From the sequence record PV523736.1: DNA of 64,000 nt; one strand, 5' to 3'. The translations under genes were made by a program, and so were the position numbers. The notes beneath the pieces are model-generated. The model did not search any database, was not told where the DNA came from, and was given only the letters and a program-made list of their open reading frames with translations. Shown here piece after piece: positions 29,286-29,504 of this stretch (positions are counted from its first letter, which is position 1; every line of letters begins with the position of its first letter). This DNA is from Enterococcus phage ZJGS3.

Positions 29286-29319
29286 AAAATAGACCCTAAA
29301 AAATGGGGTCTATTTTTTT
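29286..29319 (+). terminator. intrinsic terminator AAAATAGACCC-taaaaaat-GGGGTCTATTTTTTT
   Basis: Perfect 10-bp stem plus T7 after the tube gene. Confidence 0.7.
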
Positions 29320-29329
29320 AGTTTTGGTA

Positions 29330-29358
29330 TTGACAAATTATACATGTATCTATATAAT
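29330..29358 (+). promoter_or_regulatory. consensus sigma70-type promoter TTGACA-N17-TATAAT
   Basis: Exact -35 and -10 hexamers with a 17-nt spacer, read directly. Confidence 0.65.
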
Positions 29359-29365
29359 AGGTATT

Positions 29366-29449
29366 GTAGTTGGTATACATTTTCGAACTTAATCTTTCTT
29401 ATCTTTATCTTACACATGACCTAGCAGGAGTGCTAGGTCTATTTTTTTT
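29366..29449 (+). ncRNA. candidate small RNA (about 85 nt): starts at the consensus promoter and ends at terminator GACCTAGCA-ggag-TGCTAGGTC plus T8. No ORF or RBS.
   Basis: Promoter 29330-29358, terminator 29418-29449, no coding potential between them. Confidence 0.4.
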
Positions 29450-29473
29450 GCTCTCATAGAGGCAACTAACTAG

Positions 29474-29504
29474 TGTGCTATAATAAGTATAGAATGCTAT
29501 ATTA
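29474..29504 (+). promoter_or_regulatory. tandem extended -10 promoters TGTGCTATAAT (29474-29484) and TGCTATATTA (29495-29504) upstream of the chaperone gene
   Basis: Two TGnTATAAT-like motifs 20 bp apart, followed by RBS AGGAGGAATAAG. Confidence 0.5.

Follow-up and report, generated by a model that had tools for sequence, protein, structure and literature searches.

A candidate small RNA gene with antisense similarity to early mRNA leaders between the tail tube and chaperone genes of Enterococcus Schiekviruses

The c4 RNA of phages P1 and P7 acts in trans on the icd-ant leader, and the CI RNA of phage P4 behaves similarly; both arise by processing of longer transcripts. Lambda OOP and P22 sar are cis-antisense RNAs of about 70–80 nt, which lie opposite a single target and repress phage genes by pairing. 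In T4, the RegB endoribonuclease cleaves GGAG in early Shine–Dalgarno (SD) sequences. For the SPO1-like phages (Herelleviridae), temporal control has been attributed to sigma and anti-sigma factors together with a few shut-off proteins, and to our knowledge, no RNA regulator of the early class is known in these phages. Here, we analyzed a 64,000-nt stretch of Enterococcus phage ZJGS3 (PV523736.1; referred to as the window), in which a consensus promoter leads into a terminator in the gap that separates the tail tube gene from the first tail assembly chaperone gene. We propose this unit as a Schiekvirus small RNA (sRNA) gene, the product of which would act in trans as an anti-leader sRNA, masking the 5' end, the SD flank, and the AUG of the early mRNAs. 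On the sequence evidence, the chances for and against this proposal appear evenly balanced.

The unit resembles c4 and CI in that unpaired seeds would pair in trans with a phage operon leader and silence it, and the two separated complementary blocks of c4 are reminiscent of seeds A and B described below. The c4 and CI RNAs serve immunity in temperate phages and control one operon, whereas the unit resides in strictly lytic Herelleviridae and would target a dozen separately promoted transcripts. It also has a consensus promoter and a terminator of its own, in contrast to the processed c4 and CI RNAs. A dedicated promoter running straight into an intrinsic terminator is shared with OOP and sar, but these RNAs act in cis, while the putative targets of the unit are about 30 kb or more away, so that it would act in trans. 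As with RegB, a whole class of early mRNAs would be inactivated post-transcriptionally through a shared feature of the initiation region. RegB, however, is a protein nuclease directed at the SD core, whereas the determinant here would be an RNA addressing the 5' leader and the SD flank.

Anatomy and conservation of the unit

Between positions 28800 and 30100, the window showed 100% identity with Enterococcus phage ZJGS4 and 99.6–99.9% identity with EfV12-phi1, EFDG1, vB_EfaM_A2, and others. Judged by these near-identical relatives, the source phage is an Enterococcus Schiekvirus (Herelleviridae, Brockvirinae). The unit and its left boundary consist of the following features.

29286–29319, plus strand: T1, an intrinsic terminator with a 13-bp stem (29286–29316) and then a T-run; it ends the sheath/tube late operon and is the left boundary of the unit.
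29330–29358, plus strand: sigma-A consensus promoter of the early class, TTGACA (29330–29335), N17, TATAAT (29353–29358), a 12/12 match.
29366–29447, plus strand: predicted RNA of about 82 nt; its start is placed at 29363–29366 by the spacing from the −10 element, and its 3' end falls within the U-tract.
29418–29449, plus strand: T2, an intrinsic terminator, GACCTAGCA/GGAG/TGCTAGGTC, with a 9-bp stem (29418–29439), UA, and U8 (29442–29449).

The initial annotation had described this succession of a strong terminator, an exact TTGACA-N17-TATAAT promoter, and a second strong terminator, and all three elements were found in place. The 12/12 sigma-A match was the only one on either strand of positions 1–60000, where about 0.14 would be expected by chance according to a composition-based estimate. 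T2, which is nearly invariant among the relatives, has a GC-rich stem (centroid −15.6 kcal/mol) and sets the 3' end of the predicted RNA. The body between the promoter and T2 comprises 56 nt without a credible open reading frame (ORF). The structure prediction proposed in the initial annotation yielded a weak 5' hairpin, a long CU-rich stretch that came out unpaired, and the T2 hairpin, with a minimum free energy (MFE) of −17.3 kcal/mol (z = −2.2).

The earlier statement that no ribosome binding site (RBS) or start codon lies between the promoter and T2 holds in substance. A micro-protein gene could be sought in a 29-aa ORF with a TTG start on the plus strand (29370–29459), annotated as a hypothetical protein in phage 21C1, or in a minus-strand ORF of 19–35 aa, listed with 35 aa among the ORFs of the window. 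The 29-aa ORF, however, starts about 5 nt from the predicted transcription start without an SD and extends through T2. It carries a stop codon in iF6, and its frame shifts with the T7/T8/T9 length variants. The 35-aa minus-strand ORF is reduced to 19 aa in 10 of 13 relatives and has no promoter and no SD; a second minus-strand ORF has neither SD nor promoter. Broken, frame-shifted, or truncated across the relatives and devoid of SDs, the micro-ORFs of both strands are effectively refuted by this comparison, and we regard a coding function as hardly credible.

Constraint was calculated from an alignment of 13 Schiekviruses, and is given below as nucleotide diversity (π) and variable sites.

T1: π 0.23, 25/34 sites variable.
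Promoter region: π 0.23, 29/42 sites variable.
Transcribed stretch 29362–29417: π 0.013, 3/56 sites variable.
T2: π 0.007, 1/22 sites variable.
Third codon positions of the chaperone gene: π 0.12, 43/158 sites variable (about 27%).
Third codon positions of the tube gene: π 0.074, 35/141 sites variable.
Spacer between the first and second chaperone genes: π 0.094, 13/55 sites variable.

Overall, 4 of the 78 sites of the transcribed part varied, which corresponds to an approximately ten-fold stronger constraint than at the neighboring synonymous-like sites. The promoter hexamers were invariant in 11 of the 13 phages, with variation in the spacer between them. The variant alleles of T1 still form stems, as seen by inspection of the alignment, and the only substitution in T2 (PEf771) turns an A-U pair into a wobble-compatible G-U pair. 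The promoter is replaced in the two remaining phages. An unrelated segment supplies TTGACA-N17-TATACT (11/12) in TJE2, and a segment related to it carries GTGACG-N17-TATACT (about 9/12) in EFGrKN; both swaps join the common sequence at about +1. As a caveat, the tract of low diversity extends past the unit, through the late promoters and the first 85 nt or so of the chaperone gene. Co-conversion accompanying homing endonucleases was considered as the cause of the conservation and rejected, because variability is highest in T1 and the promoter spacer, which lie closest to the insertion site.

Complementarity to the early mRNA leaders

Leader sequences were taken from the rest of the near-identical genome of vB_EfaM_A2 (A2), outside the 64-kb window. 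The terminal early-type regions of A2 contain many consensus sigma-A promoters, and at least 11 early promoters are followed from about +1 by a stereotyped leader, TGTAAGATAAATAAGA(..)AAAGAAAGAGGGAAC..AAAAATG, with AAAGAAAGAGGG before AAAAATG. In its RNA form, the conserved leader is UGUAAGAUAAAUAAGAAAGAG...AAAAAUG. The reverse complement of 29389–29417 is ATGTGTAAGATAAAGATAAGAAAGATTAA, and the reverse complement of the unit reads like the whole early leader, from +1 to the ATG. The complementary blocks are as follows.

29404–29414, plus strand: seed A, UUUAUCUUACA, the exact complement of the first 11 nt of the leader, UGUAAGAUAAA, at 11 promoter-proximal leaders.
29393–29401, plus strand: seed B, UCUUUCUUA, complementary to UAAGAAAGA, which abuts or overlaps the SD region of the leader.
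29377–29383, plus strand: block C, ACAUUUU, complementary to AAAAUG(U), the sequence around the start codon of the early genes.

Seed A is invariant in all relatives aligned, and the seed region is unpaired in both the MFE and the centroid structures. With the leader at A2 position 885, seeds A and B gave 11 + 9 bp around a 2-nt bulge (29402–29403). Seed B formed 8 bp across an internal loop with other leaders, and the leader at A2 position 1423 yielded a 13-bp helix with 5–7 bp beyond a 1-nt bulge, depending on the calculation. When the 82-nt RNA was cofolded with the leaders, T2 stayed intact, the ΔΔG values ranged from −20 to −26 kcal/mol, and block C paired with the AAAAAUG region in 4 of 5 dimers.

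The mean duplex energy for the 11 leaders was −19.5 kcal/mol, as compared with −10.6 ± 1.6 kcal/mol for 1000 dinucleotide shuffles, none of which was as good. Five of 2500 random natural 53-nt segments of the genome performed equally well, all of them literal antisense strands of leaders; the next values were −18.1 and −16.6. A genome-wide scan with the 29-nt seed placed early leaders at about 12 of the top 35 or so non-overlapping matches, and the unit was the sole inverted copy of the leader motif in the genome. The target search suggested in the initial annotation thus revealed a statistically exceptional target class, the early mRNA leaders, in the phage's own genome. Confined to the window, the search returned a longest Watson–Crick complement of 12 nt, equal to the shuffle expectation, and the unrestricted RNAduplex matches were long, loopy, and uninformative. 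Together, the conserved hexamers and terminator, the constrained body without a surviving ORF, the unpaired region, and the target class support the reading of the unit as a small RNA gene.

The promoter–leader module is multi-copy in all Brockvirinae. In EFP01, a divergent Schiekvirus, the leader is conserved and stands at 10 of 17 early promoters. In phiEF24C, a phage of the sister genus with an ORF in the tube–chaperone gap, the scan of the whole genome identified 18 sense leaders of its own version and no inverted copy. Hence, the inverted copy co-occurs with the ORF-less unit, only in the genus having that unit.

The early regions themselves (A2 1–6900 and about 145600–149431; phiEF24C 95600–105800) are made up of numerous modules that are almost identical and run from ctaTTGACA and a conserved spacer through TATAAT and aaaca to the leader TGTAAGATAAA, followed by an SD and a small ORF. 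Across the two genera, the spacer and the leader are conserved as well as the hexamers, which suggests that the leader, and perhaps the spacer too, has a function of its own. As an alternative to RNA pairing, the unit could contain a DNA-level element. TGTAAGATAAA would then be an operator at +1 of the early promoters, recognized by a phage or host protein, and the copy in the unit would be another binding site, with a role such as that of a roadblock, of a decoy, or of an element upstream of the late promoters, which are located about 60–110 bp downstream, with protein binding as the source of the conservation. The position of the motif at the transcription start of the early promoters in two genera is typical of operators, and the conserved stretch runs from about +1 to the chaperone ATG, including late-promoter DNA that is not transcribed. 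On the other hand, the complementarity goes beyond the 11-mer and covers three blocks in the layout of the RNA leader, from the 5' end to the AUG. Inspection of the other late promoters showed nothing comparable upstream of them, and the copy lies in antisense orientation inside a promoter-to-terminator unit, in a region predicted to be unpaired. We therefore give the operator explanation only a slight chance.

The only other non-leader copy of TGTAAGATAAA was found at A2 11442–11500 (plus strand), in sense orientation and followed by a hairpin, GCAAGCAGT/ACTACTTGC, and a T-run. It is intergenic between minus-strand genes, with no clear promoter upstream, and could be a chance occurrence or another small unit.

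The RNA could also be genuine and have its main targets elsewhere, among the mRNAs of the Enterococcus host, in a host protein, or among other transcripts of the phage, the leader match being incidental or secondary. Phage-encoded sRNAs acting on host targets are documented in the literature, SD-targeting seeds of sRNAs in Gram-positive bacteria are similar to the CU-rich seed, and the leaders are only slightly better partners than several purine-rich sites in phage coding sequences. However, no other class of phage sites was enriched among the top seed matches. A scan of one genome per bacterial species with the extended target motif gave five unrelated matches in metagenome-assembled genomes and none in Enterococcus; shorter host sites fall outside that scan. 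These results leave a small probability for targets other than the leaders. With regard to an RNA anti-CRISPR, in the form of a repeat or anti-repeat mimic, local alignments with the E. faecalis type II-A repeat of the clustered regularly interspaced short palindromic repeats (CRISPR; an approximate sequence) gave scores at chance level, since 271 and 1953 of 2000 shuffles scored as well.

A gathering-threshold scan of the whole window with Rfam 15 gave no family at 29286–29504, and a 2-kb scan at E-values up to 10 returned chance-level matches only (OmrA-B, 16.8 bits at a threshold of 40; rhtB, 21.1 bits at a threshold of 55). Elsewhere in the window, we observed a tmRNA gene (810–1160, minus strand; 145 bits, tag AKNEELLAVA), a full-length ROOL RNA (6626–7212, minus strand; 260 bits), and about 21 tRNA genes (166–7737, minus strand) clustered with the tmRNA and the ROOL RNA. 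ROOL-like long noncoding RNAs (lncRNAs) beside tRNAs have been reported from Kayvirus transcriptomes. Small and large noncoding RNAs (ncRNAs) are expressed by Herelleviridae of the Kayvirus and P100-like groups, including snc001–007 of phage K, lncRNAs/ROOL-like RNAs, and the ncRNAs of CKA15 (PMC9241854, PMC7698491, PMC12282133). The published transcriptomes of phage K, 515A1, and CKA15 report no sRNA in the tube–chaperone slot and none linked to early leaders.

Late promoters and the accessory slot

The unit is flanked by the following genes and promoters.

27081–28790: sheath gene, upstream of the tail tube gene.
28856–29278: tail tube gene, the left neighbor of the unit.
29476–29484, plus strand: late-class promoter, TGCTATAAT, serving the tail chaperone operon; outside the RNA.
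29495–29504, plus strand: late-class promoter, TGCTATATTA (−10 element TGCTATATT, 29495–29503), serving the tail chaperone operon; outside the RNA.
29534–30007: first tail assembly chaperone gene, with AGGAGG at 29520–29525 and the ATG at 29534.

The initial annotation had taken the two promoters downstream of T2 for generic extended −10 promoters. The elements are present, but their class had to be revised, since they represent the late-promoter motif TGCTATA(A/T)T. This motif occurs 17 times in the window, against 1.55 expected, and both copies upstream of the chaperone gene are invariant among the relatives. The exact 10-mer TGCTATATTA accounts for 10 of the 17 motif sites, mostly intergenic and shortly 3' of a terminator hairpin. 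Window positions noted for the two versions are as follows.

TGCTATATTA: 14471, 15892, 16619, 17645, 19842, 21720, 26062, 29495, 53496.
TGCTATAAT: 8536, 13309, 29476, 36977, 43665, 53447.

The experimentally derived late promoter of Kayvirus is TGTTATATTA, without a −35 element (PMC7698491). The Schiekvirus late motif matches this consensus and is its counterpart. It also matches the site upstream of ORF9, the chaperone homologue of Listeria phage A511, where a transcription start is annotated 5 nt past TGTTATATTA (record X91069). A terminator followed by a late promoter is accordingly the standard late intergenic module, to which T2 belongs; the extras beyond this module are T1, the sigma-A promoter, and the 56 nt.

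Two further sites were noted. At 53447–53504, TGCTATAAT stands directly before a strong terminator hairpin (53458–53485), which is followed by TGCTATATTA. Here, a late promoter seems to run into a terminator, unless the first −10 element is spurious. The sheath–tube spacer contains a conserved GC-rich hairpin at 28795–28825, GGGGGCTTTTAGCCCCC, without a T-run and with 2/65 sites variable; its role may lie in mRNA stability or processing rather than in termination. The A511 annotation has a putative terminator at the equivalent place.

The tube–chaperone slot of Schiekvirus is a hot spot for the insertion of free-standing genes (29251–29306 of the window). A 370-aa gene with the annotation Vsr endonuclease is present in ZJGS2, iF6, and Bill, and the partial record of phage 113 has an 'intron-encoded nuclease' at its end, in the same slot position; we read these as homing endonuclease genes. 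In ZJGS2 (segment 1800–3030), the gene is inserted in the last 28 nt of the tube gene, the original 3' end of which is fused to the endonuclease ORF, and the tube 3' end upstream of the insertion is recoded, a hallmark of homing. EFP01 (segment 1475–3000) contains an unrelated 445-aa gene, a homing endonuclease according to its RefSeq annotation, which abuts T1; here, the left arm of T1 is replaced. TJE2 (segment 1120–1490) also has a recoded tube end, but an 86-aa ORF takes the place of the endonuclease gene, and one IMG/VR contig has an extra small ORF in the slot, as in TJE2. The unit of promoter, 56 nt, and T2 is kept downstream in every Schiekvirus insertion context, including the IMG/VR contigs, behind two promoter alleles.

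The same slot is occupied differently in other genera. The A511 gap holds a terminator and late promoters only, and the gap of Kayvirus ISP has a sigma-A promoter driving ORF20–23. In Kochikohdavirus (phiEF24C and Revolver), T1 is followed by a TTGAC[CT]-N17 promoter, an RBS, a 46–48-aa ORF, a T2 orthologous to that of Schiekvirus (GACCTA...TAGGTC + T8), and late promoters, and phiEF24C has an additional 278-aa ORF. The cassettes of Kochikohdavirus (ORF025/026) and Kayvirus ISP (ORF20–23) share with the unit both the slot and the order of tube gene, terminator, sigma-A promoter, cargo, (terminator), late promoter, and chaperone gene. Their cargo is protein-coding and equipped with an RBS, whereas the Schiekvirus unit contains 56 nt that lack both an ORF and an RBS and resemble the early leaders in antisense. 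Compared with a moron-like early accessory cassette, the unit has the promoter, the terminator, and the slot, and lacks the coding cargo with an RBS. More distant homologues were searched for in IMG/VR through the chaperone protein and the T2 pattern, which returned relevant contigs of Schiekvirus and Kochikohdavirus only. The unit was also considered as a remnant of the small Kochikohdavirus ORF (MKYPYLVELYAKHV...), but comparison by eye showed no convincing DNA similarity.

These cassettes raise the possibility that the unit is a decayed accessory cassette, which has lost its cargo ORF and retained a scrap of inverted leader, with double termination between the highly expressed sheath/tube operon and the chaperone operon, that is, insulation, as its only function. 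Promoter-plus-ORF cassettes in the same slot of Kochikohdavirus and Kayvirus ISP are in line with such a history, as is the empty slot of A511, and homing endonuclease genes and the 86-aa ORF come and go within Schiekvirus. Moreover, T2 as part of the standard late module, ahead of TGCTATATTA, needs no explanation through an RNA gene. A relic would, however, be expected to drift neutrally. The 4/78 variable sites of the transcribed part, as compared with about 27% of the third codon positions, do not meet this expectation, while T1 and the spacer do drift. The hexamers are maintained, and where they are lost, a second promoter allele substitutes for them, intact at 11/12 in TJE2 and weakened to about 9/12 in EFGrKN. 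Furthermore, the only inverted leader copy of the genome sits exactly between this promoter and T2. The insulator offered as an alternative in the initial annotation would consist of two terminators with no other constrained sequence; it accounts for T1 and T2, but not for the conserved promoter and the nearly invariant 56 nt between them. As judged from the alignment, an insulator-only relic is contradicted by this constraint, and we grant the decayed cassette a modest chance at best.

Proposed mechanism and implications

In the proposed mechanism, the host sigma-A RNA polymerase would start at about 29366 and stop at T2, releasing an RNA of about 82 nt with an unpaired pyrimidine-rich body and a terminator hairpin. 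Seed A would cover the first 11 nt of the leader, seed B the AAGAAAGA flanking the SD, and block C the AAAAUG context. Pairing of this kind, in trans and with at least a dozen early transcripts, would block 30S binding, and the duplexes may become substrates of RNase III. The outcome would be a class-wide post-transcriptional shut-off or damper, limiting the translation and/or the stability of the early mRNAs, which are terminal-repeat-proximal and of the host-takeover type. As for the origin of the unit, an inverted copy of an early leader may have been captured in the accessory slot, where it came to lie between a promoter of the early type and the T2 already present there. The sequence elements, their conservation, the lack of an ORF, and the complementarity are observed directly, whereas we infer the transcription of the RNA, the direction of its effect, and its timing. 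In its boldest form, the proposal is that one anti-leader RNA of about 82 nt, evolved from an inverted early 5' untranslated region, silences all terminal-repeat host-takeover mRNAs of a strictly lytic phage; this we hold tentatively, with doubt slightly outweighing belief.

Several observations weigh against the anti-leader sRNA. A literature search found no Schiekvirus transcriptome. Recognition of the target class was post hoc, and since the 11 leaders are paralogous, the tests come down to a single match with a single consensus. No exact complement exceeds 11–13 nt, a length expected by chance somewhere in a 150-kb genome. A leader profile searched with nhmmer matched the minus strand of the unit as its first non-leader match, with an E-value of only 0.49; descent of the unit from the leader is thus suggested, not proven. 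Pairing energies of −18 to −21 kcal/mol were also obtained for the CU-rich seed with several stretches of purine-rich coding sequence, and the invariance of the RNA leaves no compensatory covariation. In addition, the sRNA promoter is itself of the early class, so that a delayed shut-off would need an additional timing mechanism. The SD core (GAGG) lies outside the pairing, and Kochikohdavirus, with similar leaders, manages without such an RNA.

With these points considered, the unit is a candidate identified in silico, for which a precise mechanism can be stated and tested. If the proposal is true, a single sRNA directed at a leader common to a dozen early genes, each with a promoter of its own, would be an economical means of switching the whole class post-transcriptionally. 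T4 RegB would thereby have a counterpart made of RNA, the early-to-late switch of SPO1-like phages would gain a new layer, and the stereotypy of the early leaders would be explained. The unit would also provide a clean example of a trans-acting sRNA arising by inversion of its target leader. Schiekviruses such as EFDG1, EfV12-phi1, and their relatives are therapy candidates against vancomycin-resistant enterococci, and a regulator of host takeover would therefore be relevant to phage engineering and to predicting infection dynamics.

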